From Escherichia coli (GTDB lineage: Bacteria > Pseudomonadota > Gammaproteobacteria > Enterobacterales > Enterobacteriaceae), in assembly GCF_003019035.1 (NCBI RefSeq), contig NZ_CP027448.1: a stretch of 64,000 bases of DNA; one strand, written 5' to 3'. Both the position numbers and the translations under genes were made by a program. Numbering within the stretch: position 1 is the stretch's first letter; each line of letters begins with the position of its first letter. Positions 8,801 through 64,000 of the stretch are shown here, in pieces. The notes under the pieces were generated by a model. The model did not search any database and was not told the origin of the DNA. It saw only the letters and a list, made by a program, of their open reading frames with translations.

Positions 8801-11073
8801 AGGGAGGCCGGTTCAGCCCGCCCCGGCACAACAACCGTCATCGAATCTTCACTGACGGATGCCACCTGCAGGCGGTCACCGCCGGAGACGCGGAGTCCGG
8901 GAATTTTCCCTGTCACCCTCAGACGCTCGCCGTCTGCCACCGGCATTTTTTCCGGCCGGAACAGCGACCAGCTGCTGTCCAGGGAGGAAATACGCACCAC
9001 CTGCGTTTCGCCCTGCGCATCCCGCAGGGTCAGGCTGTGACTCTGCGCCGTCACCCGATCGATAACATAGAGGTCATGACTGCGTGTCTCCGGGTTCCAC
9101 TGCTCCATCACCATCCCCGGACGGTACATATCCCGCAGATAACGGCTCCGGCTGTCCAGCCAGACCGGTGACAGAGCGGTCATGGTCACCTCCGGGTGTC
9201 CGAGCACGCCCTGTGTTTTCAGCTCACTGCGAACGGCCTGTGTCAGTATGGCCTGTTCCCGTACCCCGCTGACCTGTGCCACGCTCTCTTCTCCGGCTTT
9301 CACGCTGGCCGCAAAATCTCCGGCCAGCCGGGCATAGCGGACATTACGGTCCGGTTCACTGATGATGGTGGCCGGTCGCTGTTCTCCCCCCTGCCAGCGA
9401 TATGTGTTCACCCCGGCATCTTTCATGGCCATCAGTGCACTGCCTGTACCGGTTCGCTGCCCGCTGTCGGTTATCAGGACCTGTACGTTATGACGTGCGG
9501 CACCGTCCAGCAGGGTTAACGTCTCTTTCAGGGAGAGTTTTTCGCCCTGGTCAACGATAACAGTACTGCCCAGCGTGAAGGCCATGCCTTCCAGCAGCTG
9601 ACGACGTCCGGTTATCAGCTCACCGGACAGCCGTTCATCCTGCTTCAGGTTCATCTGCGAGCGACGGTCAGCAGCGATAATCTGCACTTCCCGCCCCTGC
9701 TCCCGGGCCATCATGACCAGTTCAGCCACCCGCTCACGCTGCCCGGCTGCACCGCCCTGCCCGGACACAATGGCCAGCGACGGACGGTCCTGTGCCAGAA
9801 CACTGACGGCATCGCTGTAGCCGGCCGTCCGGGGGACACTTTTCTCCGGATGTACGGTCACCCGGTTCTGTTTCATGATATCGCGACTGAGTGCCCGGAC
9901 TGACAGTTCATCGAGCACATGAATCCCGGACGTGAACAGCCCCTTCTCACGGTCAAGGGGGATGAGTTGCTCACGGCTGATGGCCTCATCGATACCGGCG
10001 CGTGCCCGTTCAATCACACCATTTTCCGGCGGCAGTATACCGACCGTTCTGGCCAGCACGTCCGTGTACGTAAACTGCACTTTTCGTTCACTTAATCCGG
10101 CAATCGCCTGTGTCACCGCCTGCTGCACATCCGGCCCCTCCTGTGAAACAGCCCCGGGCGCCTGCGTGCGGGTCTCCGCACGCTGATCCGCCGCGTCACG
10201 ATATGCCCGGATGTCGAACCCGGTTTCCTTCAGCGTCTGCATCCATTCAGCCATTCTGACTTCAGGATCGACGTGCTGTTTGGATTTTCGCGTATCCAGT
10301 GCCGCCACATCCCGGGATTTCAGCGAGGCGTCCTCCCCGACGGCCTCCCGGATAGTCTGCGAGCGTCCAGAAAAGGCCTCCACCGGTATGCCCAGCATTT
10401 CCCACATACCGTGCTGACCCACCACTTCGGTTTCATAGCCCAGCGCCTCAACCTGCTCTTTCAGTTTTTCCCGGTAGAGCCTGCCAAAGGCAATCTGATT
10501 AGCGTACACATTCTCAATGAACCCCGTTTTCCCCACTTTGTCACTGCTCAGTGTCTTCCATTCGCCGTTATGCTGCGTGACATTAGCCACCACCGCATGC
10601 GTGTGTAACTGTGGTTCCTGATCGCGACTGGTGTCGTGGTTAAACAGTGCCATCACCAGATTACCGGTCAGCACCGTTTCTGACTGTCCGTCCGTCATCA
10701 CCCGTGTGGAGGCCAGCGCCTCCACCTGACGGACAGCAAAATCCACGGCCTGGTTATGTGCTTCAATAAGACGTTTGTCCCCCCCGAGCATGGCCATCAT
10801 GGAGACACTTTTGGGAGCGGAAAAGGTCAGGTCGTAGCCGGGACGATGCCTGTTACGGCCATCCTGCATGCGGCTTAAATCCGCCCCGTCTGGCAACCTG
10901 CCCTCCAGAAGGCGGGTAAAGACATCCTTATCGACACTGCCCTGCAGCCCCAGTTGTTCAGCCCCCTGGCCGGCCCAGCGTTCTCCCATGCTGCCCAGCA
11001 CATAGTAATTATCCTTGTCGGTATAATAGTTCCCGGCACTTCCGGCCGATCTGACCTGCGCAATACTCATCAT
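5803..11073 (-). CDS. traI: TraI relaxase/helicase, 1756 aa
   Basis: From the MM at 11073: MMSIAQVRSAGSAGNYYTDKDNYYVLGSMGERWAG..., HTHAVVANV (3-His relaxase motif), Walker A GYAGVGKT; length equals F TraI. Confidence 0.97.
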   Translation of the reverse strand: MMSIAQVRSAGSAGNYYTDKDNYYVLGSMGERWAGQGAEQLGLQGSVDKDVFTRLLEGRLPDGADLSRMQDGRNRHRPGYDLTFSAPKSVSMMAMLGGDKRLIEAHNQAVDFAVRQVEALASTRVMTDGQSETVLTGNLVMALFNHDTSRDQEPQLHTHAVVANVTQHNGEWKTLSSDKVGKTGFIENVYANQIAFGRLYREKLKEQVEALGYETEVVGQHGMWEMLGIPVEAFSGRSQTIREAVGEDASLKSRDVAALDTRKSKQHVDPEVRMAEWMQTLKETGFDIRAYRDAADQRAETRTQAPGAVSQEGPDVQQAVTQAIAGLSERKVQFTYTDVLARTVGILPPENGVIERARAGIDEAISREQLIPLDREKGLFTSGIHVLDELSVRALSRDIMKQNRVTVHPEKSVPRTAGYSDAVSVLAQDRPSLAIVSGQGGAAGQRERVAELVMMAREQGREVQIIAADRRSQMNLKQDERLSGELITGRRQLLEGMAFTLGSTVIVDQGEKLSLKETLTLLDGAARHNVQVLITDSGQRTGTGSALMAMKDAGVNTYRWQGGEQRPATIISEPDRNVRYARLAGDFAASVKAGEESVAQVSGVREQAILTQAVRSELKTQGVLGHPEVTMTALSPVWLDSRSRYLRDMYRPGMVMEQWNPETRSHDLYVIDRVTAQSHSLTLRDAQGETQVVRISSLDSSWSLFRPEKMPVADGERLRVTGKIPGLRVSGGDRLQVASVSEDSMTVVVPGRAEPASLPVSDSPFTALKLENGWVETPGHSVSDSAKVFASVTQMAMDNATLNGLARSGRDVRLYSSLDETRTAENLARHPSFTVVSEQIKARAGETLLETAISLQKAGLHTPAQQAIHLALPVLESKNLAFSMVDLLTEAKSFAAEGTSFTELGGEINAQIKRGDLLYVDVAKGYGTGLLVSRASYEAEKSILRHILEGKEAVTPLMERVPGGVMESLTSGQRAATRMILETSDRFTVVQGYAGVGKTTQFRAVMSAVNMLPESERPRVVGLGPTHRAVGEMRSAGVDAQTLASFLHGTQLQLRSGETPDFSNTLFLLDESSMVGNTDMARAYALIAAGGGRAVASGDTDQLQAIAPGQPFRLQQTRSAADVAIMKEIVRQTPELREAVYSLINRDVERALSGLESVKPSQVPRQEGAWVPEHSVTEFSHSQEAKLAEAQQKAMQNGEAFPDVPMTLYEAIVRDYTGRTPEAREQTLIVTHLNEDRRVLNSMIHDAREKAGELGKEQVMVPVLNTANIRDGELRRLSTWETHRDALVLVDNVYHRIAGISKGDGLITLQDAEGNTRLISPREAVAEGVTLYTPDTIRVGTGDRMRFTKSDRERGYVANSVWTVTAVSGDSVTLSGGQQTRVIRPGQERAEQHIDLAYAITAHGAQGASETFAIALEGTEGSRKQMAGFESAYVALSRMKQHVQVYTDNRQGWTDAINNAEQKGTAHDVFEPKSDREVMNAERLFSTARELRDVAAGRAVLRQAGLAGGDSPARFIAPGRKYPQPYVALPAFDRNGKSAGIWLNPLTTDDGNGLRGFSGEGRVKGSEDAQFVALQGSRNGESLLADNMQDGVRIARDNPDSGVVVRIAGEGRPWNPGAITGGRVWGDIPDNSVQPGAGNGEPVTAEVLAQRQAEEAIRRETERRADEIVRKMAENKPDLPDGKTELAVREIAGQERDRAAITEREAALPDSVLRESQREREAVREVARENLLQERLQQMERDMVRDLQKEKTLGGD

Positions 11074-11087
11074 AAACGTATATCCCT

Positions 11088-11116
11088 TTGACATATCCCG
11101 GCATCAATCCCACAAT
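11088..11116 (+). promoter_or_regulatory. Candidate vapBC promoter with ATATCC/GGATAT operator-like repeats
   Basis: TTGACA (11088..11093), 17 nt, CACAAT (11111..11116); ATATCC occurs three times and GGATAT once between 11081 and 11140, upstream of AGGAGG-ATG of vapB. Confidence 0.3.
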
Positions 11117-11154
11117 GGATATACACAAGACATATCCACATAAGGAGGCAAATA

Positions 11155-11382
11155 ATGGAAACCACCGTATTTCTCAGCAACCGCAGCCAGGCGGTCAGAC
11201 TGCCAAAAGCGGTTGCATTGCCGGAAAACGTAAAACGCGTTGAAGTGATTGCTGTCGGACGAACCCGAATCATTACGCCTGCCGGAGAGACATGGGACGA
11301 ATGGTTCGACGGAAACAGTGTCAGCGCTGATTTTATGGATAACAGGGAACAGCCTGGTATGCAGGAAAGGGAGTCATTCTGA
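11155..11382 (+). CDS. vapB: VapB/VagC antitoxin (AbrB/SpoVT-type)
   Basis: 75 aa: METTVFLSNRSQAVRLPKAVALPENVKRVEVIAVGRTRIITPAGETWDEWF...; stop overlaps vapC start (TGATG). Confidence 0.9.
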   Translation: METTVFLSNRSQAVRLPKAVALPENVKRVEVIAVGRTRIITPAGETWDEWFDGNSVSADFMDNREQPGMQERESF

Positions 11383-11780
11383 TGCTGAAGTTTATGCTCA
11401 ATACCAACATCTGCATTTTTACGATAAAGAACAAACCCGCCAGTGTCAGGGAACGTTTTAACCTGAACCAGGGGAGAATGTGCATCAGTTCGGTCACTCT
11501 GATGGAGCTGATATATGGTGCAGAAAAAAGCCAGATGCCTGAACGTAATCTCGCTGTGATCGAGGGATTTGTTTCCCGCATTGACGTTCTGGATTACGAC
11601 GCTGCTGCTGCCACACACACCGGCCAGATAAGAGCAGAACTTGCCCGTCAGGGACGCCCTGTCGGGCCATTTGATCAAATGATCGCAGGTCATGCCCGCA
11701 GTCGGGGACTGATTATTGTGACTAATAACACCCGGGAATTTGAACGTGTGGGCGGCCTGAGAATTGAAGACTGGAGTTGA
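11382..11780 (+). CDS. vapC: VapC/VagD PIN-domain toxin
   Basis: 132 aa: MLKFMLNTNICIF...LMELIYGAEKS...DQMIAGHARSRGLIIVTNNTREFERV; PIN acidic residues in the usual positions. Confidence 0.9.
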   Translation: MLKFMLNTNICIFTIKNKPASVRERFNLNQGRMCISSVTLMELIYGAEKSQMPERNLAVIEGFVSRIDVLDYDAAAATHTGQIRAELARQGRPVGPFDQMIAGHARSRGLIIVTNNTREFERVGGLRIEDWS

Positions 11781-11788
11781 CCTGTTCA

Positions 11789-13942
11789 TCAGAAATCATC
11801 TCCCGGCTCAACATCCTCCCCGCGCTCCCGGTGCACATTAATGTTCACCTCTTCACGACGCTGCATCTGCTGCTGGATGTCCGGATGATTTTCCTGTTGC
11901 CATGCCTCATAAGCGGCCATATCCACCACTTCACCGGATTCACTGATCCCGGGTGGCAGTTGCTGTTCCATCTCTTCTTCCGGTTTCATTTTCAGCTCCT
12001 GCTCGATCCCCCCTACCGGAACATTCACACCTGAATCTGACTTCTTATCGTTGATGGCAGGAGACACCGGCTGTTGCGGCTGTTCAGCCTGAGTCACGTC
12101 TTCTCCGGAAACAACCTCCGGGACATCCGGTTCGAAGAGGCTGGCCATCTGACGACCTTCTGCTTCCCTTGCGGCAAGTACGGCACTCAGACGGTTCTCC
12201 ATTTCCGGGTTGATGTCACGCGGAATAAACTCCGGAGCGACCTTCGGTCGTGTCTGATATTTCAGAGAGAGTTTTACTGCCGGATACGGTCCGGGCAGGG
12301 TGACATAACAGGTCAGATCCGGCAGAGACTGAATGTCGGAATAACTGACCAGCGTCTGGCGCTCCATATCCTTACCGGTCGATACCCCGTCACGTACCGG
12401 ATCAGCACCGTAGGAATACTGCTCGCTGGCTTTCAGGTGCTCTTTCTCACCAATTTCACCGGCAGCGAACTCTGCAATCTTATGGCTGGGAGAACGGAAA
12501 AAGGCACGGGTGTTCATGACGTCAAACAGCGAGGCAGCCGCTTTCTCACCGTAGATATCTTCCAGCTGGGCATAGGACTGGATACCAAACACATAACAGC
12601 CACCGAACTTACGGGCTTCCGGCAGGATCTCCACCAGGTCCGGCAGTTTGTGTAACGTGGGTAACTCATCACAGAAAAACCACACACGACGGTTACGGTT
12701 TTCTCCCATTGCCAGCAGACCACGAATGGCAATGGACAGCCACATGGAGATCACCGGCTTCAGGGAGGCATGGGTGTCGGCATTCGACGAAATAAACAGC
12801 CAGCCGTTTTTCTGATCTTCCCGGACACCACGCATCCAGTCACGGATGGTAAAAGACTCACCGTTATGCTCAATCCCCTGCAGGTAACGGATGGCTTTCA
12901 CGTAGTTGGTCAGCACAGCACGGATGGAAATCGCCGTTTTCTCAATTTTCTCTTCCACCAGGTTGGCCGCCGGTGAATTACGCAGGAAGGTACGCAGTTT
13001 TTCGATTTTGATGGAAAGCAGTGTGTCCACCAGTTTGCTGTAGCTGCGGTTGGGGTCATTACGCATCAGGTACGCCGCTTCCGCAAAAATGGTACGTCCT
13101 GACCCCTGCCAGAACGGGTCCTCTTTTGTGCCCATCGGGATCAGCGTGTTCGCGGTATTATCAAAATCCGGCTGTGTCAGGCACTCCTTCCACAAATCCC
13201 AGGCGGCACAGCGGGCATCCAGCGGATTCAGGATTTTATCGATGGAGGGATCATAGTAACTTTTAACAAATTCCCCTGAACGGTCATAAATCACCACCAT
13301 ATCTCCACGCTGACGGGCGTAGTTGGCCAGACGACGGATAACTTCCGACTTACCGGCCCCGACCGTGCCGTGCAGACAGAAGTTCTGGATTTCGGAATCC
13401 CGGATAATCGGCAGGTCGCCAATCCGTATATCGGAGTCCTTGCCGTCTTTTTTCAGCATCCGGGCAACGTCTTTCGGATTGTCTGTCAGCTGACGACCAC
13501 CTGTGACTTCATTTTCGCTCTGTTGTTTACCCTGACGCCCCAGAATCCAGGAGACAACAAAGAAGGTAATCAGGCAAATAACCAGTGCCACAACTGTGGC
13601 CAGAACGAATGCGGACCATAGCTGCTCTCCGCACCAGATCATATATTTATCATGCAGTACCTGAGCAGCATTCATCCGGAAGGTTTTGCCGTAATACTGG
13701 ATCTCATATACCGGCTGGGACTTGATTAAATCCCGCATGCCTTCCAGCGTGGTACACCACCAGTAAATACAGCCGTTCACAAACGTCTGCCAGCTTATTT
13801 TTACCCATAAAACCAGACCAACGAGTATCCAGAAAAAAATAAACAGGCAGTAAAGCATGATATTGGCGATCTGGCTGAACATGCGGATACGCATGGACGC
13901 AATCTGACCGCCCTGGGTCATATCCTTTGCGTTAAAACTCAT
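11789..13942 (-). CDS. traD: TraD type IV coupling protein, 717 aa
   Basis: [31 protein letters not shown]..., Walker [10 protein letters not shown]-terminal ...[10 protein letters not shown] as in F/R100 TraD. Confidence 0.97.
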
Positions 13943-54053: not shown

Positions 54054-54407
54054 GGGAATTCTCCTCTCACATGCGGCCTCCATCAGGCCGTGCCGCACCT
54101 GTAACCGGGCGACCGCATACGAATGCAGGTGCGGCCCCGAAGCCGCAGCGCGTGGAGGAGGAACGACGAAACGTGACCGGGTGAGGAGGCCGGCGACAGC
54201 GACACACTTGCATCGGATGCAGCCCAGTTAACGTGCCGGCACGGCCTGGGTAACCAGGTATTTTGTCCACAGAACCGTGCACAAAATGCTGTGGATAAGC
54301 TGGACACAGCAGCCCACAGCAGGCATACAGCCACACCCTCAGAGAATTGAACGTTTTTTAGCCGCAACAATGACATTTGACTGTATGTGGATTCAGTTAT
54401 TAGAATG

Positions 54408-54423
54408 CTGTATATGCATACAG
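54408..54423 (+). promoter_or_regulatory. LexA (SOS) box of the impCAB operon
   Basis: CTGTATATGCATACAG = perfect CTGT-N8-ACAG, 24 nt upstream of impC; a weaker box CTGTATGTGGATTCAG lies at 54381..54396. Confidence 0.8.
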
Positions 54424-54446: not shown

Positions 54447-54695
54447 ATGATCCGCATTGAAATTCTTTTCGACCGCCAGAGCACAAAAAACCTCAAATCA
54501 GGCACACTTCAGGCGCTACAGAATGAAATCGAACAACGACTGAAACCACACTACCCGGAAATCTGGCTGCGTATAGACCAGGGCAGCGCCCCGTCTGTAT
54601 CTGTCACAGGAGCCCGCAACGACAAGGATAAAGAACGTATCCTGTCTCTGCTGGAAGAAATCTGGCAGGACGACAGCTGGCTGCCTGCAGCATGA
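54447..54695 (+). CDS. impC: ImpC, DinI-family protein, 82 aa
   Basis: ATG 54447: MIRIEILFDRQSTKNLKSGTLQALQNEIEQRLKPHYPEIWLRIDQGSA... (DinI-like pattern); overlaps impA start (ATGA). Confidence 0.8.
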   Translation: MIRIEILFDRQSTKNLKSGTLQALQNEIEQRLKPHYPEIWLRIDQGSAPSVSVTGARNDKDKERILSLLEEIWQDDSWLPAA

Positions 54696-55129
54696 GTACC
54701 GTTTATCACCGTCCGGCTGACCCTTCAGGCGATGACAGTTACGTGCGACCGTTGTTTGCCGATCGTTGCCAGGCCGGTTTTCCTTCGCCTGCCACTGATT
54801 ATGCTGAGCAGGAACTGGATCTGAACAGCTATTGCATCAGCAGACCTGCAGCCACCTTCTTTCTGCGCGCCAGCGGTGAATCGATGAACCAGGCTGACGT
54901 GCAGAATGGTGATCTGCTGGTAGTGGACAGGGCCGAAAAACCACAACACGGGGACATCGTTATCGCTGAGATCGACGGTGAGTTCACCGTCAAACGACTG
55001 CTGTTGCGCCCACGCCCGGCACTGGAGCCGGTTTCAGACAGCCCGGAGTTCCGCACACTGTATCCGGAAAACATCTGTATTTTTGGTGTTGTCACTCACG
55101 TGATACACAGGACGCGGGAGTTACGCTGA
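54692..55129 (+). CDS. impA: ImpA, UmuD-family S24 self-cleaving protein, 145 aa
   Basis: ...GFPSPATDY..., catalytic Ser in RASGESM and Lys in FTVKRL. Confidence 0.9.
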   Translation: MSTVYHRPADPSGDDSYVRPLFADRCQAGFPSPATDYAEQELDLNSYCISRPAATFFLRASGESMNQADVQNGDLLVVDRAEKPQHGDIVIAEIDGEFTVKRLLLRPRPALEPVSDSPEFRTLYPENICIFGVVTHVIHRTRELR

Positions 55130-55256
55130 TGTTTACACTGGCTGATATCAACAGTTTCTACGCCTCATGTGAAAAAGTTTTCCGCCCGGACCTTCGCAAC
55201 GAACCGGTCATCGTACTCAGCAATAACGATGGCTGTGTGATCGCACGCAGCCCAGA
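55129..55256 (+). pseudogene. impB: impB (UmuC-family Y-polymerase) 5' fragment, codons 1-42
   Basis: MFTLADINSFYASCEKVFRPDLRNEPVIVLSNNDGCVIARSP, then the frame is lost at 55257. Confidence 0.9.
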
Positions 55257-55301
55257 TTATGTGGAATTGCAAGTAACGTTGTAGTGCTGATGAGGAAAAT
55301 T

Positions 55302-57530
55302 TTATCTGACTACAATATTGATATCGTTTTCCGCAACAATCAGCATCACGGCAGGTAAACCCTCCACACGCATTTTCTGGTGTAATTTTTTGATTAAATT
55401 ATCATCTTCATTACTGGCTTTTGCGGAAAAGCCTTGTGGATGGGAGTGCCATTCGCCAACATAATCGACAACACGAGCGGTCAACTGGTGAACCCGTTCT
55501 AATGCTTCTTGTTGTCCCGCTTCTCCCCGGACAAAGGAGGCTGGAGAGGATTTACTGTCGATAGGTTCAGGGAGCACGTCAACCAGAATAATCGTTTTGT
55601 TCTTAAAATCTGTTATGCCAACAATTGCACCTCCTGTTTCATTAGGCAGTGCCTGTAAGCGGGTGTGCTGCAATTTTTGCGCTAAGCCCTGGTCATATTT
55701 AACAACCCATTCGCCAGAAATTATAGATACCACGGAATAGAGTTCAATTTCATGTGCATCCATCGCGCCTGATATTTCATCAGATACCCAGATACACAAT
55801 CGAGCATTTCCTTTGAGTGCAGTCTGGCGAAGTTGGCGTGAGAGGATACCGGCATGAACATGAATACATTCACTGGACATACGTACAGAAATATCCCGAC
55901 ATCCACCACCGACCCAACGATCGCCATAATTGTGCTGTAGGTGAGTACTTCCCCACTCACTGCTCAAAATTGCCCGATAGTATTGCCCCTCAATTGCATC
56001 AATTCGGCATTGTCTGTCTACATCCTCCATTAACATCACGCTAGACTGACCCGATGGAGTCAGAAACAGGCTAACTATTCTGGGTATATCATCTTTTAAC
56101 ACTAGAGTCCTCGGCACCTCAAAGGTGGTACTGACATCCACAACTAAGTCTGCCTCATTCATTGCCTTAGCAATATCATCATCGTCATCAAGAATACTTT
56201 TATGGATCGCCTGAGGGAGGGGCTCATGCGGATAAATAGATTTGGCAATATGCTGAATAATATGGGGTTTTGAGACTCCAATATGACAATCAAACCCAAT
56301 ATGGCGAGACAAATTATGTGGAAGAAGCCGATCTGGATCAATAAAAGTCCATGTCCCCCACCCCATTCGAATCCAAATATCAGCCAATGTACTACCAAGA
56401 GCGCCAACTCCAGCTAAAATACCTCGAAAAGCTGCACTCTCTGAATCAACAGCAGATATGTCTCTCGCATGTGTGGCCTTCATAGCCGAACGTATTTCAA
56501 CTGGTAAAAGCGGTAATTGTCGCCACTTGGTACTAATTGATCCGCCAAGAAGCCGTACGCGATGCTGTACTCCTCGCTCATTTTTTGGCGCCAGCATATC
56601 TAGTGCAGTGGCAAGTTCACCGAGTGAACTTTGCACAACATAGCCCATCACATCCGTACGTTCTGTTTCTCCGTTTCTTAGACGGGGGATCCAAAGCAGG
56701 ATAAGTAAGCCTTCTCCTTTACCAGACGTTGGGCGGATACCATCACTTGGTATTGCTTCATAAACAGCGTCAGTTAGTGGTTTTAGGAGCTCACTTCCCC
56801 ATTCATTAAGTTGTTCTTCTAATTTTCCCAGATTATCCGGGTATGTAGCCACCGTAGAAACATCGACAGGAGGAACAGCAATAGTTAATAAGCGAAATGG
56901 CTTAACGCTTGAGGTATCTTGTTCTGGTACAGCCCTTAAAATAATCGGTCGCCCCTCACTGACCATCTGGAGACTGAGCTTATTGTCAGTCGCGTGATGA
57001 TAATCGGGGTAATTGGCTGGCAAAATGAGCTGATAGGGACTCAAATAAAAAAGTTGCTCAAGTGGCTGATCTTCTCGATGTAGATGCAGTTCGGCCGATT
57101 CTCTAAGCCACCAAAAAATGCGCTCAAGGAATCTCTCGGGGGTCCAACTGCGCTCAACTGCGCTCCAGGAGGCCTCATATAGGCAAAGAATTCGTGGTGA
57201 GCCAGGTTCTCCAGCATGCTGGTGAGAAAGAACAGGGAAATCTTTCCGCAATGCATGAACCAAGATAGGTATGCTTGATTTGGGATTGACCTCAATAGCC
57301 AATCGTTCTTTACGACGAATACGGGCTTGATTACCAGAAGCCACAGTCCCATCAGCAGCATCAATGATTAGATATTCCGAGCGGTTATCATTTATTTCAG
57401 AAAATCGTAATTCTCTGACTGTGACGTAAGGATGATTCTCGCATGCTTTAAGCAGCGAAATCGTTTGTGGATAAAGGCTATCGCGCCCCGATGAATCGAG
57501 GCGCTCACCCAATTCGAAATATTCGATCAT
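55302..57530 (-). CDS. E2-like / E1 (ThiF) adenylation / JAB deubiquitinase-like triple-fusion protein, 742 aa (Cap2+Cap3-like)
   Basis: E2-like LSHQHAGEPGSPRILC(116)LYE. E1 GILAGVGALGS (G374-x-G-x-x-G379), FIDPDRLLPHNLSRH, ADLVVDVSTTFE, GGGC(544)RD. JAB NE(631)TGGAIVG and EWH(695)SH(697)PQGFSAKAS(706)NED(709). Confidence 0.8.
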   Translation of the reverse strand: MIEYFELGERLDSSGRDSLYPQTISLLKACENHPYVTVRELRFSEINDNRSEYLIIDAADGTVASGNQARIRRKERLAIEVNPKSSIPILVHALRKDFPVLSHQHAGEPGSPRILCLYEASWSAVERSWTPERFLERIFWWLRESAELHLHREDQPLEQLFYLSPYQLILPANYPDYHHATDNKLSLQMVSEGRPIILRAVPEQDTSSVKPFRLLTIAVPPVDVSTVATYPDNLGKLEEQLNEWGSELLKPLTDAVYEAIPSDGIRPTSGKGEGLLILLWIPRLRNGETERTDVMGYVVQSSLGELATALDMLAPKNERGVQHRVRLLGGSISTKWRQLPLLPVEIRSAMKATHARDISAVDSESAAFRGILAGVGALGSTLADIWIRMGWGTWTFIDPDRLLPHNLSRHIGFDCHIGVSKPHIIQHIAKSIYPHEPLPQAIHKSILDDDDDIAKAMNEADLVVDVSTTFEVPRTLVLKDDIPRIVSLFLTPSGQSSVMLMEDVDRQCRIDAIEGQYYRAILSSEWGSTHLQHNYGDRWVGGGCRDISVRMSSECIHVHAGILSRQLRQTALKGNARLCIWVSDEISGAMDAHEIELYSVVSIISGEWVVKYDQGLAQKLQHTRLQALPNETGGAIVGITDFKNKTIILVDVLPEPIDSKSSPASFVRGEAGQQEALERVHQLTARVVDYVGEWHSHPQGFSAKASNEDDNLIKKLHQKMRVEGLPAVMLIVAENDINIVVR

Positions 57531-58708
57531 TGGTTTGATACACCTGCCCTAGGAGCGGCGGCCGTAGCAGCACTTACCGCAGCTGAAACAGCACCAACAA
57601 TAGCGGGTATTAACTTCCCGTCTCCAGCCACTTCAAATTCAAGGAACGCTGTATCTTTAAGATCCCCCGTACAGCTAAACCAACCATCAACACTGTCCAG
57701 AATATCCTCATACTCACGCTTAGCCCGGATGCACGGTGGATCATAATCATCATCAAGTATCTGATTGCTACTCGATACAATTGTTGCCCCGGAACGAGCC
57801 TGACCTAAAGCATTACGGGCCGCATCACAAACTTCAGCATTCTCCCCCCATTGTGACCAGCTATCATAGGAAAGTGAATGCCATGAACAATGATGCGGTG
57901 TGAGGAGAAGATCATATTCTAGTGCCTCAGCATTGCTTTTGTAACGATCCCATAATCGCTCCCAGATGAGAACTTCTGCGTCTCCACCTAATAGAAAGTG
58001 CATAGGATTACGGGAATATGCAGAGGGCAGTATTTTCATGTTCATGATGATACTGGATTCGTTTTTAGAAAGAGCTTCTTCCAAATATTCATCATCTTCA
58101 TGTGGTGCGGGCGCCAGAAGCTGTGCGGAGAACACTTCTGAAATTTGCCCGTCAATTCTGGTGAATGTATCTCCAGCTTTGATAAGAATGGCACTCAGAT
58201 CATCTGTTTTGCCATTAATATCTTCACCCATGATAAGGATTCGATTACCGCTAGATGCATAACCATGTTCCCGCCAGTATTTTACTCGGCGCCGTGCTTC
58301 TGTATTAAATGCCTGAGCATCTTCGCAAAGTGTGTGACTTTTGGAACGACGCCGAAAAATCAATGGTGATGACCACAATTCTCGAATAATGATACGCTTT
58401 TCTGAACGTTTCACATCGTCATCTGGATAATCTTCAGGACGGCCCAGCCAGAAATGTTTACGCAGGCCACCGCAATGATCCTGATCGGGATGACTGAGCA
58501 TAAAAACATCAATAAAGGGACGATCTTTTTCATCATACTTCAATCTGCTACGTAATGCCGAGGCAACATCAGGTGTGTCATCATTGGGGTTATCAGCAGC
58601 AGAGCGAATATGTACATCAATCAGAATGGATGTGCCCCGGGTGTCGGCCAAACGTACCAGTGTCATATCACCGTTGCCGACTTGGAAAAAAGTAATTTTG
58701 GCTGCCAT
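57527..58708 (-). CDS. Metallo-beta-lactamase-fold hydrolase, ComEC/Rec2-like subtype, 393 aa, with Ala/Gly-rich C-terminal tail
   Basis: FFQVGNGDMTLV, LSHPDQDHCGG, LLGGDAE and LTPHHCS follow the ComEC-type MBL motif order. The AGGAG SD favours ATG at 58708 over 58714. The stop overlaps the next gene's start (ATGA at 57527..57530). Confidence 0.78.
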   Translation of the reverse strand: MAAKITFFQVGNGDMTLVRLADTRGTSILIDVHIRSAADNPNDDTPDVASALRSRLKYDEKDRPFIDVFMLSHPDQDHCGGLRKHFWLGRPEDYPDDDVKRSEKRIIIRELWSSPLIFRRRSKSHTLCEDAQAFNTEARRRVKYWREHGYASSGNRILIMGEDINGKTDDLSAILIKAGDTFTRIDGQISEVFSAQLLAPAPHEDDEYLEEALSKNESSIIMNMKILPSAYSRNPMHFLLGGDAEVLIWERLWDRYKSNAEALEYDLLLTPHHCSWHSLSYDSWSQWGENAEVCDAARNALGQARSGATIVSSSNQILDDDYDPPCIRAKREYEDILDSVDGWFSCTGDLKDTAFLEFEVAGDGKLIPAIVGAVSAAVSAATAAAPRAGVSNQ

Positions 58709-58767
58709 CGACATCTCCTTTAGGGATACGAAAGATTGAGGTTAAGAGCATCTATTGCTAAGATACA

Positions 58768-58795
58768 TCTAGTAATTATACTAGTCTAGTAATTA
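58768..58795. promoter_or_regulatory. Candidate operator in the divergent promoter region
   Basis: Direct repeats TCTAGTAATTA at 58768..58778 and 58785..58795, enclosing the palindrome TACTAG-T-CTAGTA (58779..58791). Confidence 0.4.
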
Positions 58796-58842
58796 GACGT
58801 ATATTTTGGACTTAAATTGTAAGTACAGGAAATTATTGATAA

Positions 58843-59697
58843 ATGAGTGATAAAATGGTGAGAACTGGTCATTGGAGCCAAGAAAGACGGCTTGAATTCA
58901 TCGATTTTCGCCTACTGTGGGAAGGTCGGCTTAACCGTGCAGATCTCACGACATTTTTCAGAATTTCAGTTCCGCAAGCCTCATTAGATTTGGCAAAATA
59001 TCAAGAAGTTGCGCCAAACAACATGGTGTATGATCGAACTCAGAAGGCTTACATTACGACTCCTGATTTCAAACCTGTTTTTACAAGCTTTGACAGTAAT
59101 CATTACCTGAATGAACTACTTGGGCGAGAAAATGAAATAGTGGATCCTGATGATAGTTTCATTGGGTGGGTACCCCCGGTAGCCAGCCTTCCTCTCCCTG
59201 CCAGGAAAGTACAACCTGAAATATTGATTGATTTAATTCGAGCCATGCAAAGAAAACAGGCTTTGGTTGTTGATTATCGCTCAATGACTAATGAACCAGC
59301 AATTCGTACGCTATACCCAACAGCATTTGCACATGATGGGCATCGGTGGCATGTTCGTGCTTATTGTTTTAAGTCTACAATGTTTAAAGATTTTGTTCTT
59401 GGTAGGTTTTTTAAAATCGTTGAATTTGTTTCCCCACCGACATCAATTCCACAAGATGTGGACTGGAATACATTTATTGACGTGGTAATAGGTCCAAACC
59501 CTAACTACGATATGAATAAACGGCTATCTATTGAACATGATTATCAAATGGTAAAAGGAGAAGCAAAAATCCACATACGTAAAGCGCAATTATATTATCT
59601 TAATCGTCGATTAAATTTGGATGTAAATAGCGATGGTTCAATAGATGACAAACAGCAGATCATCATGCTCAGAATAGACGAGTCTAAAACCTATTAA
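58843..59697 (+). CDS. wHTH-WYL-domain transcriptional regulator (CapW/BrxR-like), 284 aa
   Basis: N-terminal RRLEFIDFRLLWEGRLNRADLTTFFRISVPQASLDLAKYQ (wHTH); WYL-type core ALVVDYRSMTNEPAIRTLYPTAFAHDGHRWHVRAYCFKSTMFKDFVLGRF. Confidence 0.78.
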   Translation: MSDKMVRTGHWSQERRLEFIDFRLLWEGRLNRADLTTFFRISVPQASLDLAKYQEVAPNNMVYDRTQKAYITTPDFKPVFTSFDSNHYLNELLGRENEIVDPDDSFIGWVPPVASLPLPARKVQPEILIDLIRAMQRKQALVVDYRSMTNEPAIRTLYPTAFAHDGHRWHVRAYCFKSTMFKDFVLGRFFKIVEFVSPPTSIPQDVDWNTFIDVVIGPNPNYDMNKRLSIEHDYQMVKGEAKIHIRKAQLYYLNRRLNLDVNSDGSIDDKQQIIMLRIDESKTY

Positions 59698-59709
59698 GGG
59701 AATATTTAT

Positions 59710-60228
59710 ATGAATGCGAATGATGTTAACAAACGGAATAAAGAATGGATGATTGTAATCATTATTATCTATCTTTTTATTTTGTTATGTATAGCAACAT
59801 ACGCTATTGGGGCTATGTCTCTAGGTTGGTTACCAACACCTTACGCACCATTAAGGGTGCCACTGATGTGCGGAGCAATTGCCTATATAGGTGGTTGTTT
59901 ATATTGTTTTCGTGCAATTTACCTCAATAAATGTATTAGAAAACAATGGGATCCAGATTGGCATGTATGGTATTTCATTCGCCCACTGACCAGTACAATC
60001 GCAGGTGCTATCAGTTATTTATTCCTTAAGGCGGGGTTGTTAGTTTTGGAGTCTAGTTCCAATGTAGGAGCTAGTGAAATGGGTTTCTTTGCGCTGGCAT
60101 TTATTGCTGGTTTTAACGTCGATAAATTTGTCGCAAAAATCGAGGAAGTTGCAAAGGCTGTCTGGGGTATTGAAAAAACTCGAAGCTCGACTAATAATGA
60201 TGCGAAAAATTCGGAAAAAAAAGAATAG
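59710..60228 (+). CDS. Four-TM membrane protein with charged C-terminal helix, 172 aa
   Basis: Hydrophobic segments ~13-35, 50-70, 85-108 and 122-137; starts 13 nt after the WYL gene stop; no motif recognised. Confidence 0.6.
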   Translation: MNANDVNKRNKEWMIVIIIIYLFILLCIATYAIGAMSLGWLPTPYAPLRVPLMCGAIAYIGGCLYCFRAIYLNKCIRKQWDPDWHVWYFIRPLTSTIAGAISYLFLKAGLLVLESSSNVGASEMGFFALAFIAGFNVDKFVAKIEEVAKAVWGIEKTRSSTNNDAKNSEKKE

Positions 60229-60274
60229 TCTGGATGTATTTAAATTAAAATGAAATTAGTGCTGAGCTATTTTA

Positions 60275-62486
60275 TTACTTTCTCTTATTTCCTGGGGTCG
60301 CGCCCCCAGTGAGCTTATTCAAAAGTTTGTCCACTGCCTGTATATCGTTTTCTACAGCGGCTTGTTCGTCATCAGTCAAAGGGATTTCCTGCATCAGCTT
60401 GAGTAGATTCTGGCGACCTTCCAAGTATTGTGCTTCAGATGAAGATTTTGGCATATAAAATGAGCATTTTGCACATGCCATCCGATGGGGGCATTGCTCA
60501 AAAAAGTCATAAGTACAGAAACCGTGTCCAAGATCATAATAACGCCATGGCTTCCCGGATGCTACCAGCCCTTCAGCTATCGCGTCTTGATCAATGAGAA
60601 CTGAAACCATGCGGCGATTACATTCAAAGTAACCAGCTTTATCCAGTGATCCTGCCAACCTCGTCGGTGTAATTTCGACATAATGTCGGGTAGATTCAGG
60701 TGAAGAATGCCCCAACCATTTCTGTAGCTCAAAAATATCAAGTGGTTCCCTGGCGTTGTAAAGCTGACTGGCTATAGTGGCTCTTGCCCGATGGCTGGTG
60801 ATTTTACCTCTGGCATCCTGCTCAGGTATACCAGCCTTTCTGCATAGCAAAGGGATTAGCGAATTATTAATATAACTACTGTGTACCCGTTTCCCCCTGT
60901 GCATGAACAAAAAACGGACGCTTTCACCTGTTTTAGAATCTTCCTGGAGGGGGTGGGGGTTACGAACAAGTTCCCATTGTTCGATATATTCCCCGATAAT
61001 AGGGTCAACTGGCTTTGTGAATGCCGCGTAAGTCTTGCTAACGGGTACATCTATCAGACAGATACGGGATACATTATTTTCTTCTGGCTGTTGCCAGCGG
61101 ATACACCCACACTGCATACGTAGAATTTCATCACGTCTGAGGCCTCCAAATAACCAGAGAACGCTGAGTGCTCTGACCATCTCCAGTGGATAAAAATAAG
61201 GATATGCAACACAGTTTGGTAAATCCGACTCCTGCAGGTTCTGTCCGGCGTGAAGTAATTTACACCACATATCATCGGCCACAATACGAGGCTCTGGTCC
61301 AACCAGGGAAGTCAAGCTACGCGGTGCCCTGAAAACTCTTTCTGGGCTGAATCGTACAGGTATCCATCCCCATTCCTGCAAGTCATGAAAGAAAGTTCTA
61401 ATATGACCCAACATCCTGGCTCTCGCTGCAGGCATCATCATTTTGCCACGACGGTCACGATACATGCCCCCAGGGGTTGCCCATTCACCAACTTTCATTC
61501 TACAAGCGGCGGTCACCCAGACGATCGCGGTGTCCCGTGTCCAATCAGATGGTGACAGACAGGTTGGATAGCACTCAGCTAACCAGCTGACCACACTTTA
61601 GCAAAACGTACCAACCGGACAAAATAGATGAAGGGCGAAGTACTGAGGTAGCACGCCACCGTTTGCACCATACCAGCCATTTAGTTGGTACATCAGCTGT
61701 TGCATTATATTCGCGGGGAGGACGGCGACGTTGTGTTATTCGGTAATCAACCCCTTCCTCAATAGTCCCTGATGCAGCCAGTATACGCGATAGAGTAGCT
61801 GAGGCTTCCCGGAGGGAATCCGGGCACGTTGCAGCAATCTGTTGCAACGTGGTCACGGTGATATGGTCTAGTTGAGCATCCCTTTGCAGAAGCATTGCCA
61901 TACACATGGCATTTCTGATGCCGTTGTTCCGACTATCACGAGGCACATATCCCAGAACCTGCATCATATTGTCAAGCTGGCTGACGGCAAAATCGGTGCT
62001 CTGTCGGCCAAAAACCTTAAGACAGAGCCGATATTGATAGAATATGCCACAGTGTTCCAGCCGCTCAAACCCACATAGCAACCATGCTAACGCTATAACA
62101 TATTGCCGACAGTTGCCGCTGGCTCCAAACCGTCGACGAAATTCCCCTTCGCTGTTGCAAATAACTTCTAACCACTCTTCTTGTGTCCAGGCCCAGTATG
62201 TTTTCCGGATGCGCTGCATCTCTAGGACTATATCGTGAATAGATGAATTGTAGGGGGCCTTGGCCGCATGCATTTTTGTTAGCGTGTCGCGTAGTGGTAA
62301 AAGAAGGCGGGAAAGCCGTTTTTGTATATCAGGTGACCAGTTTTTACCTCCTTGCTGGAAGTGGTCGACCAATGTATCCAGTGCCGCAAGCTCGCTTTCA
62401 GAGATCTCCGATCGGGTATCCCAAAGTAGGGCAGGAAGACTGAGTGATGTTGTCGGACAAGGCGCTGTATGTTCAGATTGCATCAT
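60275..62486 (-). pseudogene. Large tyrosine recombinase (Tn554 TnpB-like) split by a 1-nt frameshift into 303-aa N-terminal and 439-aa catalytic ORFs
   Basis: ORF 61575..62486 has no catalytic residues and ends ...GWYVLLKCGQLVS*. ORF 60275..61594 (track start is a GTG) continues ...WLAECYP... and carries GGLRRDEI, SHRARATIASQL, GHSSPESTRHYVE (R-H-R-Y) and a CPHRMACAKC motif. The frames overlap at 61575..61594. ATG 62486 overlaps the upstream stop (ATGATG). Confidence 0.65.
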
Positions 62487-63535
62487 GGAGAAGGATCCTG
62501 CTGTTGTAGTACAGTAAGGCGGCAAGTATGCAAGGATGCGACCGTGTAATTGAAACGACTACTCAGATCACGTGCGCTGAGATGAATATAGAGCAGAGTT
62601 GACTGGATACGACGGTGGCCAGCGAATGCAGCAATTTCGTGGATGTCCCACCCCACGCGTGCCAGTTCTGTCAGACAAAGATGTCGGAATGTGTGGGTGC
62701 TGATGAGTGGAAGATCAGCCTTAATAGCTAAACCGCGAACTACTTTTGACCAAGTCCAGTTGCTAATAGGTTCTGCCCGATTACGCGGAGAGCGTGAGAG
62801 AAACAACGGACCGCGAGATGAGCTTAGCATACGACGTTCAGTGAGCCATGCTGTGTAGAGTTCCCCCGTCACAGGAGAATAGGGCACAACCCGACCAAAG
62901 CGGTTTTTGGTATGCTCAGCGCGCACAGTGAGCAAGCGTTGAGAAGGGTCAATATCTCCGGTAGCTACTGTGCAAAGTTCTTCTCTGCGTAATCCGCAGT
63001 CGTAGGCCAGTGCCAGCATAAAACGAGTACGGATATCAGCTTGTCCGGCTACCTCAAGAAAGCGCAACCACTCCGCATCATCCGGGATCCACGGTAGCCG
63101 CCGCTGCAACGGCACTATACCAGCTTTTCCTTTCCCTCCGTTTTTCCAGACACCTCGTCTGACAGGATTTCTCTCCCGTATCCCCTCCTCACAAAGCCAA
63201 TAGTTGTACAGTCGTACCACCGTCAGCCGGTGGCGGATAGTGGCAGCTGCCAGCTGGCGACCGGTATGCAGGCTGCGGACATAGAGTGCGACCGTATCAC
63301 GTCCAGCGACAGCAGCCGTCAGGGCAACAGAGTGACAGAAAGCGAGCCAGTCATTGACGCCACGGGCATAGGCATCAATGGTGTTTGGAGCACACAGCAG
63401 GTCCTCCTGCAGGCACACCCACCGGCAAGCTGAAGGATCGGCCGACAGAAAAGGCAGCGCATCCAGCAGTTTCTTGTGCACAGCATCCCCCTTTTCGATA
63501 ACAGAATGTGTTGTATGAAATATAGTCAATTCCAA
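62483..63535 (-). CDS. Tyrosine recombinase (TnpA/XerD-like), up to 350 aa
   Basis: Catalytic set GLRREEL, HTFRHLCLT, GHRRIQSTLLYIH. The track start (63535) is a TTG only 8 nt from the element end; GTG at 63481 with a GGGGGA SD is a plausible alternative. Confidence 0.85.
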   Translation of the reverse strand: MELTIFHTTHSVIEKGDAVHKKLLDALPFLSADPSACRWVCLQEDLLCAPNTIDAYARGVNDWLAFCHSVALTAAVAGRDTVALYVRSLHTGRQLAAATIRHRLTVVRLYNYWLCEEGIRERNPVRRGVWKNGGKGKAGIVPLQRRLPWIPDDAEWLRFLEVAGQADIRTRFMLALAYDCGLRREELCTVATGDIDPSQRLLTVRAEHTKNRFGRVVPYSPVTGELYTAWLTERRMLSSSRGPLFLSRSPRNRAEPISNWTWSKVVRGLAIKADLPLISTHTFRHLCLTELARVGWDIHEIAAFAGHRRIQSTLLYIHLSARDLSSRFNYTVASLHTCRLTVLQQQDPSP

Positions 63536-63543
63536 ATAACATA

Positions 63544-64000
63544 GAAGCGAAGCGGCTGGGCATAAAAATGGGAGTACCGTGGTTTCAGCTGAAGTCGGTG
63601 AAATTTCCGGAGCCGGTCATCGCCTTCTCCAGTAATTACGCGCTATACGCATCGATGTCGAACAGGGTTATGTCTCATCTCGAGGAGCTGGCGCCGGGCG
63701 TGGAGCAGTACAGTATTGATGAGATGTTTCTCGACGTGCGGGGTATTGACAGCTGCATCGATTTCGAGGATTTCGGCCGGCAGCTGCGTGAACACGTCAG
63801 GAACGGGACTGGCCTGACTATCGGTGTCGGAATGGGGCTAACCAAAACGCTGGCAAAGTCAGCACAGTGGGCTTCCAAAGAGTGGCCACAGTTTGGTGGC
63901 GTGCTGGCGTTAACGCCAGGCAATATCCGCCGTACGGAAAAACTGCTGTCACTGCAGCCGGTGGAGGAAATCTGGGGGGTAGGCAGCAGGATATCAAAGA
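63544..64000 (+). pseudogene. impB: impB 3' portion (from codon 43), continues beyond window end
   Basis: Open frame EAKRLGIKMGVPWFQLKSVKFPEPVIAFSSNYALYASMSNRVMSHLEELAPGVEQYSIDEMFLDVRG...GVGMGLTKTLAKSAQWASK...IWGVGSRISK, colinear with UmuC residues ~43-195. Confidence 0.9.

Follow-up and report, generated by a model that had tools for sequence, protein, structure and literature searches.

How does an SOS polymerase gene on a plasmid come to be cut in two, and what is the DNA that separates its halves? We addressed this question in a 64,000-nt stretch of Escherichia coli contig NZ_CP027448.1 (hereafter the window), in which the polymerase gene impB is interrupted by an insert of 8,287 bp (55257-63543). 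We found that this insert is very probably a site-specific integrative element built on one short and one long tyrosine recombinase, specialised for umuC-type genes and loaded with the anti-phage system 6A-MBL. The window holds a decayed copy of this element, flanked by chimeric DNA.

The split impB gene and the contents of the element

The impB open reading frame halts after codon 42 (55129-55256, translated as MFTLADINSFYASCEKVFRPDLRNEPVIVLSNNDGCVIARSP plus a trailing GA) and picks up at codon 43 at position 63544. There, frame 0 reads EAKRLGIKMGVPWFQLKS, begins with EAKRLGIKMG and stays open through 64000, the end of the window. A GA dinucleotide is present at both junctions (55255-56 and 63544-45). 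When the halves are fused with a single GA, the resulting protein is colinear with two intact homologues, one from Citrobacter (L004, ...ARSAEAKRLGIKMG / NNDGCVIARSAEAKRLGIKMG) and one from E. coli pZ1323CEC0015-2 (L099, ...ARSPEAKALGIRMG). No codon is missing, and the alignment defines the target site after umuC nt 128 with no sequence lost. The initial annotation had described a clean split after codon 42 by an 8.29-kb insertion with GA on both sides, and these observations bear it out. The imp operon and the two impB fragments comprise the following features.

54377-54423, plus strand: promoter-like site of the imp operon, TTGACT-18-TAGAAT, including the LexA box
54408-54423: LexA box CTGTATATGCATACAG, the sole CTGT-N8-ACAG match within the window
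54447-54695, plus strand: impC, DinI-like, intact (Pfam DinI, E=8e-18)
54692-55129, plus strand: impA, UmuD-like S24 peptidase, intact (Pfam Peptidase_S24, E=1e-23)
55129-55256, plus strand: N-terminal impB fragment (42 codons plus GA) of 'type Z' ancestry, 127 of 128 nt identical to L099
63544-64000, plus strand: C-terminal impB fragment from codon 43, of 'type W' ancestry, leaving the window

The impA gene is 99.8% identical to that of the intact L099 operon, and the DinI-like protein of L099 is the same as that of the window. Measured as an impCAB/umuDC SOS operon, the locus has its LexA box and an intact impA, and the Y-family polymerase gene is split. The ImpB subunit is inactivated, with its first 42 residues cut off from a remainder that belongs to a different allele, and impC and impA are still under SOS control. 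The plasmid has lost the polymerase subunit and kept the accessory proteins, as originally proposed. The same annotation expected SOS-induced transcription to run into the element antisense to the E2-E1-JAB gene. Since we found no terminator-like site between 54300 and 55500, read-through from the imp promoter antisense into the 6A-MBL operon is plausible. The element itself encodes the following.

55302-57530, minus strand: 6A-MBL Cap2_3 protein, a 742-aa E2-E1(ThiF)-JAB fusion (Pfam Prok-E2_A, ThiF and Prok-JAB)
57527-58714, minus strand: 6A-MBL MBL-fold protein, 395 aa
58843-59697, plus strand: WYL/BrxR-type transcriptional regulator (Pfam WYL)
59710-60228, plus strand: 172-aa predicted membrane protein with no family match
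60275-62486, minus strand: long tyrosine recombinase B, a pseudogene in the window (736 aa if intact)
62483-63481, minus strand: short XerC/D-like tyrosine recombinase A (Pfam Phage_integrase, E=6e-29, plus a SAM-like domain)
63498-63526, plus strand: weak outward promoter-like site at the recombinase end, ATAACA-17-TATAGT (9/12), by consensus match alone

By profile comparison the cargo is a 6A-MBL system, predicted to protect its host against phage. The Cap2_3 protein scored 661 bits against the NCBIfam equivalog NF058523 (cutoff 320) and the MBL-fold protein 426 bits against NF058524 (cutoff 220), and the two genes overlap by 4 nt. PADLOC 2023 returned generic E1-E2/JAB matches alone, and the NCBIfam profiles were decisive for the 6A-MBL identity. 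This system is cited among the known jumbo-phage defences (bioRxiv 10.1101/2025.09.30.679545). The window version shows no sequence-level difference from known 6A-MBL; the linked WYL/BrxR and 172-aa membrane genes are additional companions. The CEC15 copy of the WYL regulator is named BrxR family by RefSeq, and its homologues match WHD_BrxR and BrxR_CTD. The membrane gene is kept beside the WYL gene in L001, L002, L087, L088 and L090-L094, and is thus a constant companion of the cargo.

Recombinases A and B both carry Phage_integrase domains. The A gene begins beside the 3' fragment of impB and is transcribed away from it, antisense to the imp operon. Its stop overlaps the start of B, and an alternative TTG start at 63535 gives a length range of 332-350 aa; RefSeq annotates A as a 999-bp coding sequence in L003, L087 and L102. 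The promoter-like site at 63498-63526 faces the impB 3' fragment and is reminiscent of the outward promoters reported for GInts.

The initial annotation counted three recombinases in an intact element, and here it needs correction. The three tandem recombinase reading frames represent two genes, with those at 61575-62525 and 60275-61594 both belonging to a single 736-aa gene. Alignment with L001 and L002 located a 1-bp insertion at 61588 that splits B into the listed frames of 316 and 439 aa. B is annotated as one 2,211-bp gene in L001 (Klebsiella), L002 (E. coli CI5) and L087 and L102 (E. coli CEC15, protein WP_046201802.1). The same frameshift is found in pSE11-2 and pAPEC-O2-211A-ColV, and not in CEC15. 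Programmed frameshifting was ruled out: GGTC[A]GCTGG is no slippery sequence, and the extra base is missing from intact copies. Because B is frameshifted, the window copy is probably immobile and fixed in place unless B is supplied in trans.

Other long recombinases are broken or annotated in two parts. On the E. coli G3/10 chromosome (L088 10014-13449), B is broken by an ISSen4-like IS3 element, making this a separately decayed copy. The long recombinase of Rhodococcus qingshengii pN9T4-1 (L098, 2218-5564) appears as two coding sequences of 1,245 and 1,062 bp; this may reflect another, independent frameshift or a gene that is truly split.

The alignment of the B family revealed a conserved helical N-terminal domain of ~260 aa and, C-terminal to the catalytic tyrosine, an invariant Cys/His cluster (CTYDFFxQCPHRMACAKCxFY; C656, C664, H666, C670 and C673 in P0002). 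Structure and fold searches of B identified the canonical recombinase part alone, with no informative match for the N-terminal ~260 residues or the Cys/His tail. These two parts are candidates for target recognition.

Element ends, crossover site and mobility

The ends of the element and the bases next to them are as follows.

55251-55256: target-type central region CCCAGA (umuC nt 123-128), closing with the crossover GA
55257-55269, plus strand: cargo-side terminal inverted repeat TTATGTGGAATTG
63527-63539, minus strand: recombinase-side terminal inverted repeat (complement TTATTTGGAATTG)
63540-63545: element-type central region CATAGA, in which CATA is the element's own and GA the crossover dinucleotide

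The ends had been described as imperfect inverted repeats, and a repeat is indeed present. The gapped alignment first given for it does not hold: the repeat is 13 bp long, its arms match at 12/13 positions, and the recombinase-side arm lies 4 nt (CATA) from the GA. An 11-mer, TTATGTGGAAT, is kept at the element ends across phyla, and CATAGA is retained in the K. pneumoniae (L001) and CEC15 (L087) copies.

The flanking GA had been left as either a target duplication or a crossover core. Two pairs of occupied and empty sites, from K. pneumoniae and E. coli G3/10, allowed us to distinguish between them. The empty site of the Klebsiella umuC reads ...GCTCGTTG-TA-AACTGG..., and the occupied site carries TA at its cargo end and GA at its recombinase end. 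In the chromosomal umuC of G3/10, the empty site reads ...AACGCT-GA-GGCAAAGG..., and the occupied one carries GA next to the cargo and TA next to the recombinases. The cargo-side junction retains the bases of the target, and the recombinase-side junction retains bases that travel with the element. Since the flanking dinucleotides are unequal (TA/GA and GA/TA), a target-site duplication is excluded, and the pattern fits conservative site-specific recombination. As read from these junctions, the GA is the crossover core.

In the inverted Klebsiella insertion, the dinucleotide corresponds to umuC nt 123-124 rather than 127-128, that is, to the other end of the same six bases. This supports a 6-bp central region at umuC nt 123-128. 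Two arms around a 6-bp centre are the usual geometry of a tyrosine-recombinase core site. The target of this element lineage is umuC nt 123-128 (codons 41-43), inside the conserved block ...NNDGC(V/I)IAR-x-x-(E/D)AK. A full 6-bp direct repeat (TCGCCG) flanks one relative, L011. Among relatives in different targets, the four bases on the element side (CATA, TAAG or similar) are conserved; therefore, the centre is apparently not exchanged with each move.

We propose the following reaction. A and B would excise the element as a circle whose junction, CAATTCCAAATAA-CATAGA-TTATGTGGAATTG, would place the two repeat arms around the 6-bp centre and serve as attP. The attP would recombine with the umuC site, with the effective crossover at the GA end of the centre, possibly by a single strand exchange there followed by replication, by analogy with Xer/CTX-type and CTnDOT-type reactions. 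The cargo-side junction would then hold the six bases of the target and the recombinase-side junction the element's own six. A restored empty umuC/impB site would be expected to read ...CCCAGAAGC... or ...GCTGAGGCA.... The model is precise in its predictions of the circle junction, the 6-bp centre and a crossover beside GA, and CEC15 offers a natural two-target strain.

Searches for the element elsewhere recovered it from both plasmids and chromosomes. At least 80% of the region is carried by 37 PLSDB plasmids, and of the 5,426 complete E. coli genomes 129 gave a match, 16 places being chromosomal. Independent insertions were found in the IncF impB of the window and pSE11-2, in CI5-type plasmids, in the chromosomal umuC of E. 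coli CEC15 (between hlyE/umuD and dsbB), and, in reverse orientation, in the umuC of Klebsiella IncFIB/HI1B plasmids. In E. coli G3/10, an element that is 83% related and has the same cargo occupies the umuC of the chromosome. Between the copy on the CI5 plasmid and that on the CEC15 chromosome there is no difference in 8,287 bp. CEC15 itself holds the B-intact element both in the impB of pCEC15 (L102) and in the chromosomal umuC (L087), with all six annotated proteins identical. This occurrence of an identical element at two sites in one strain is strong evidence, drawn from genome comparison, that the B-intact version is mobile.

The reversed copy in umuC occurs in K. pneumoniae NZ_CP023917.1 (L001 10275-11459) and in ~20 similar Klebsiella plasmids. 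RefSeq annotates A there as a 1,185-bp coding sequence starting from the umuC ATG, an in-frame UmuC(1-41)-A fusion. It lies directly behind umuD, and A would therefore be SOS-controlled in these plasmids.

Approximately 100 E. coli plasmids, many of them from avian strains, retain just a partial B, A and the 3' part of impB. The sole remnant that we inspected, pAPEC-O2-211A-ColV (L086 2485-5810), abuts IS1 and carries the B frameshift. IS1 seems to have removed the cargo and impCAB' from the ColV remnants, and the insertion, whole or as a remnant, is common throughout this group of plasmids. The ColV copies, 3.3 kb in size, had been candidates for a natural cargo-free element, which we rejected because the inspected one is an IS1-truncated remnant.

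Chimeric flanks and competing explanations

To trace the ancestry of the two impB halves, we calculated segment identities against the joined gene of the window lineage, taking the 3' part from pSE11-2, which has the same flanks. The intact L099 gene is 99.2% identical (127/128) to the joined gene over nt 1-128, versus 61.7% over nt 129-600 and 66.2% over nt 601-1275. The intact genes of L004, L100 and L101 are 69-74% identical over nt 1-128, 83-89% over nt 129-600 and 84-86% over nt 601-1275. The ancestry switches at the junction, within 3 nt. Among the 72,556 plasmids of PLSDB, no intact gene spans the window join at more than 82% identity, and in the 5,426 complete E. coli RefSeq genomes none reaches 80% coverage of the join. 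No intact impB allele matching the C-terminal part was found in PLSDB or E. coli RefSeq; likewise, neither PLSDB nor the complete E. coli RefSeq genomes yielded an empty site of the window's exact impB allele. The type-W C-terminal allele is seen in interrupted form or as a remnant alone, in more than 100 plasmids.

The initial annotation had described a simple insertion into one gene, to be given up if the two halves proved to come from different genes. A one-step insertion into a single resident impB, with both halves from one original gene, would account for the codon-clean junction and for the colinearity with intact homologues. Moreover, CI5-type plasmids show just such an event: their halves are matched, with 98.4%, 94.9% and 92.9% identity to L099 over the three segments, and represent a clean insertion. 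In the window lineage, however, the N-terminal part follows L099 while the C-terminal part does not, the closest relatives of the C-terminal part have N-terminal parts just 69-74% identical to that of the window, and the switch coincides with a junction that no intact gene in PLSDB or the complete E. coli RefSeq genomes spans at high identity. We consider the one-step account quite improbable. On these alignments, the halves are of different allele ancestry, and the impB flanks in the window are chimeric, drawn from two impB/umuC alleles.

The same left flank (impC-impA-impB') is joined via the element to two different 3' polymerase fragments in the window lineage and in CI5 (L002), and these fragments are followed by different partition genes (ParA versus ParB-family/AAA ATPase). 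The differing right flanks of the two lineages suggest a backbone exchange at the element. The window element differs from the CI5 copy by 46 substitutions. These are evenly spread with no breakpoint, and homologous recombination inside the element was rejected as the source of the chimera. The most economical reading of the sequences is a later attachment-site exchange between two replicons, in which, for example, attL would have been exchanged with an empty or occupied site in another umuC homologue and the product then resolved.

The remaining alternatives concern the nature of the insert and the reason for its persistence. An insertion sequence or DDE-type transposon with a 2-bp GA target-site duplication would explain GA on both sides in the window and on the CEC15 chromosome. 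However, no transposase of such type is encoded, the recombination genes being two tyrosine recombinases alone; the target position is invariant across phyla; and the unequal dinucleotides, at sites that hold a single TA or GA when empty, refute a duplication. We give this account practically no credence. Nearly as hard to sustain is a three-integrase element of the GInt (ginABCD) or RIT (ritABC) type, which was suggested by three tandem minus-strand reading frames, two of them with Phage_integrase matches, and by trio elements whose rulB insertions lie at nearly the same position (Rhodes 2014, PMC4542609). The element has two recombinase genes rather than the three of these groups, since the second and third frames form one 736-aa gene in every non-frameshifted copy, and it does not have the ginD/TnpC-like fourth gene that GInts would require. 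A true trio with other gene sizes stands beside an A/B pair in p12939-PER, and is clearly distinct from it.

A further proposal, compatible with a site-specific umuC element, is that the insertion has been kept as a regulatory arrangement, with selection for SOS-driven antisense read-through of the 6A-MBL operon or for lowered plasmid-borne mutagenesis. The antisense orientation recurs in nearly all members at this umuC site (site 1), the path from the LexA-box promoter to the element holds no terminator-like site, and the forms of the C-terminal allele seen in more than 100 plasmids are all interrupted or remnant. Nevertheless, the orientation may follow merely from asymmetry of the recombination site, the same element is inverted in Klebsiella plasmids, and persistence is expected anyway after the frameshift in B. 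Such selection would seem unlikely, though it retains some plausibility.

Several points also weigh against the site-specific element as we have modelled it. The chimeric flanks could derive from a mosaic impB allele that predated the insertion. We infer the excision step and the attP structure from the junctions alone, and neither an excised circle, nor an empty type-W gene, nor the reciprocal product of recombination was seen. Some relatives have unmatched dinucleotide pairs (GG/GA in L006 and CG/CC in L014); therefore, either the homology requirement is loose or the crossover model is incomplete. In addition, the target arms are unlike the element arms in sequence, and a strand-correct scan found no promoter-like site for A inside the element. 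We nevertheless favour the site-specific short-plus-long recombinase element. For the plasmid lineage of the window, it means that the SOS polymerase is lost and the element is stuck, and the chimera hints at element-mediated shuffling of replicons.

Targets across phyla and relation to known elements

Recombinase B belongs to a large family of recombinases of ~730-780 aa. We examined 80 B-family loci from representative genomes of Enterobacterales, Alphaproteobacteria, Acidobacteriota, Chloroflexota, Bacteroidota, Cyanobacteria and others, and found an A homologue upstream of B in nearly all of them. In most of the 80 loci, A and B are flanked by the motif TTAYGTGGAAT, located ~80-140 nt upstream of A, with an inverted copy downstream. 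The insertion site is a split UmuC homologue in 11 of the 80 loci. We also assembled 17 N-side junctions from an E. coli plasmid and chromosome, Klebsiella, Pantoea, Paracoccus, another Alphaproteobacterium, Acidobacteriota and more. Counted from the first base of the S-N-N-D-G-C codons, the repeat begins exactly 38 nt on in all 17, immediately behind umuC nt 128. The same nucleotide of a umuC homologue is occupied by relatives in at least five phyla. In most site-1 members the recombinases are antisense to umuC, as in the window, and the sense arrangement is limited to the inverted Klebsiella copy and L013/L022.

The A/B homologues of Pantoea and Erwinia are 73-81% identical to the window's. 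An enterobacterial clade of 61% relatedness, represented among the 17 junctions, has the 6A-MBL cargo too and occurs in many genomic contexts. Many relatives are 3.3-3.8 kb long and consist of A and B alone; L006 and L031 are genuine cargo-free examples. Long recombinases on plasmids of Rhodococcus and Streptomyces share 40-42% identity with the B protein.

Other members of the family have different targets. The Telmatobacter bradus chromosome (L071, L072 and L074, each 8665-12160) holds three 3,496-bp copies with A and B only, which sit just past the ATG of paralogous genes (..ATGTATCTG|..|AGAACAAAGC..) and resemble a site-specific insertion sequence. Further clades, judged from reconstructed empty sites (L031, L064, L048, L047, L061 and L035) and Pfam, interrupt six other gene types: ParB-like, SNF2-type helicase C-domain, IS605 OrfB/TnpB, DUF6094 methyltransferase, Bro-N and Rad52/22. 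Most of these genes are typical of other mobile elements.

A second umuC/rulB site, after ..FSSNYxL at ~codons 86-88, is used by an A/B clade of 35% relatedness (L095 1871-7398; L096 7490-16431), which lies in sense orientation and has the ends GTTAAGTGGAAT / ATTCCACATAA. This clade carries a type III effector in Pseudomonas syringae pv. pisi pPP1-1, and a restriction-modification system with an AAA ATPase in Raoultella pHNNC189-4. On P. aeruginosa p12939-PER (L097 900-16585), two different tyrosine-recombinase elements lie upstream of one umuC C-terminal fragment: one has three genes (385, 528 and 599 aa) along with mer genes, and the other is an A/B pair with chlorite dismutase. These look like tandem accretion at two umuC sites.

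Homing of recombinase elements to a conserved coding block accounts for the frequent breakage of umuC-type genes on plasmids, integrative and conjugative elements, and chromosomes. The cargo of the family is clinically and ecologically relevant: anti-phage defence here, restriction-modification systems and type III effectors elsewhere, and probably tigecycline efflux pumps.

Among described systems are the integron-like elements (ILEs) of Pseudomonas, including the T3SE-ILEs of P. syringae, for which experiments have established rulB as a hotspot. The FH1 ILE lies 123 bp inside rulB and is bordered by the short repeat GAT (Rhodes et al. 2014, PMC4542609). Its integration was demonstrated experimentally and is lost upon rulAB deletion, and FH-type ILEs encode three recombinases of 385, 525 and 535 aa (PMC4542609). 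Both the ILEs and the window element are site-specific in a umuC homologue, with tyrosine recombinases at one end and variable cargo. In contrast, the ILE recombinases are co-directional with rulAB' and thought to be SOS-driven, whereas those of the window are antisense, and the cargo differs. The element of P. syringae pv. pisi pPP1-1, with the order rulA-rulB'-A-B-effector-'rulB, has end repeats of the same type as the window's, and its long recombinase is 35% identical to B over 88% of the length (E=6e-118). The A/B relatives of P. syringae and Raoultella occupy the second site and are co-directional with umuD, whereas the window element lies at codon 42/43.

The tmexCD-toprJ module, int1-int2-hp1-hp2-tnfxB-tmexCD-toprJ, is found in umuC-like genes (PMC9769766, PMC12108250, PMC12627040). 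Likened by description, it shares two adjacent integrases at one end, conserved umuC-like sites, presence on plasmids and chromosomes, and multiple copies per genome. It differs in its arrangement (umuD-ΔumuC-int1-int2, in sense) and in carrying an RND efflux pump. The umuDC islands of ICEPan and Erwinia plasmids have xerC/xerD-like recombinases at UmuC position 88 or 37 (De Maayer et al. 2015, PMC4458695). Like the window element, they interrupt umuC in Enterobacterales and are common to several genera; however, they were described as non-conserved, without a mechanism, end repeats or an attachment site, and with metabolic or stress cargo.

In Tn554-related pairs, a recombinase of ~350 aa lies next to an abnormally long one of 611-828 aa and is read in the same direction (Van Houdt et al. 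2012, PMC3414803). The window element likewise combines a short and a long recombinase, has no true target duplication, and can have differing junction bases. This likeness is one of architecture, with an indirect sequence link via the Rhodococcus and Streptomyces long recombinases. Unlike Tn554, the window element has no TnpC-like third gene, either in its recombinase module or in its cargo-free relatives. It also has clear terminal inverted repeats, which Tn554 is not known to possess.

A broader idea is that the window element is the tip of one pan-bacterial superfamily of two-recombinase 'homing' transposons with nearly universal TTAYGTGGAAT ends around a 6-bp centre, in which every clade would have its own conserved codon block as target, mostly in genes characteristic of other mobile elements. 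It would unite the rulB ILEs, tmexCD-toprJ, the ICEPan islands and the actinobacterial Tn554-related pairs. We offer this only tentatively and regard it as rather doubtful. Recombinases of such a superfamily could exchange attachment sites between replicons, as the chimeric impB hints. If this is true, the elements would shuffle plasmid backbones besides carrying defence and resistance cargo.

A literature search for the end-repeat sequence returned unrelated primer matches alone. The end motif shared across phyla, the model of a 6-bp centre, the two-site case of CEC15 and the chimeric flanks go beyond the literature that we found. Compared with described umuC/rulB islands, the window element has a reproducible umuC position, tandem recombinases at one end and recombinase homology to a described member, although its recombinases do not run in the direction of the truncated 5' umuC. 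Target, architecture and homology all support its membership in the umuC-targeting group. Taken together, tyrosine-recombinase islands in umuC/rulB have already been described, and the window element is a further one, defence-carrying and locally decayed.

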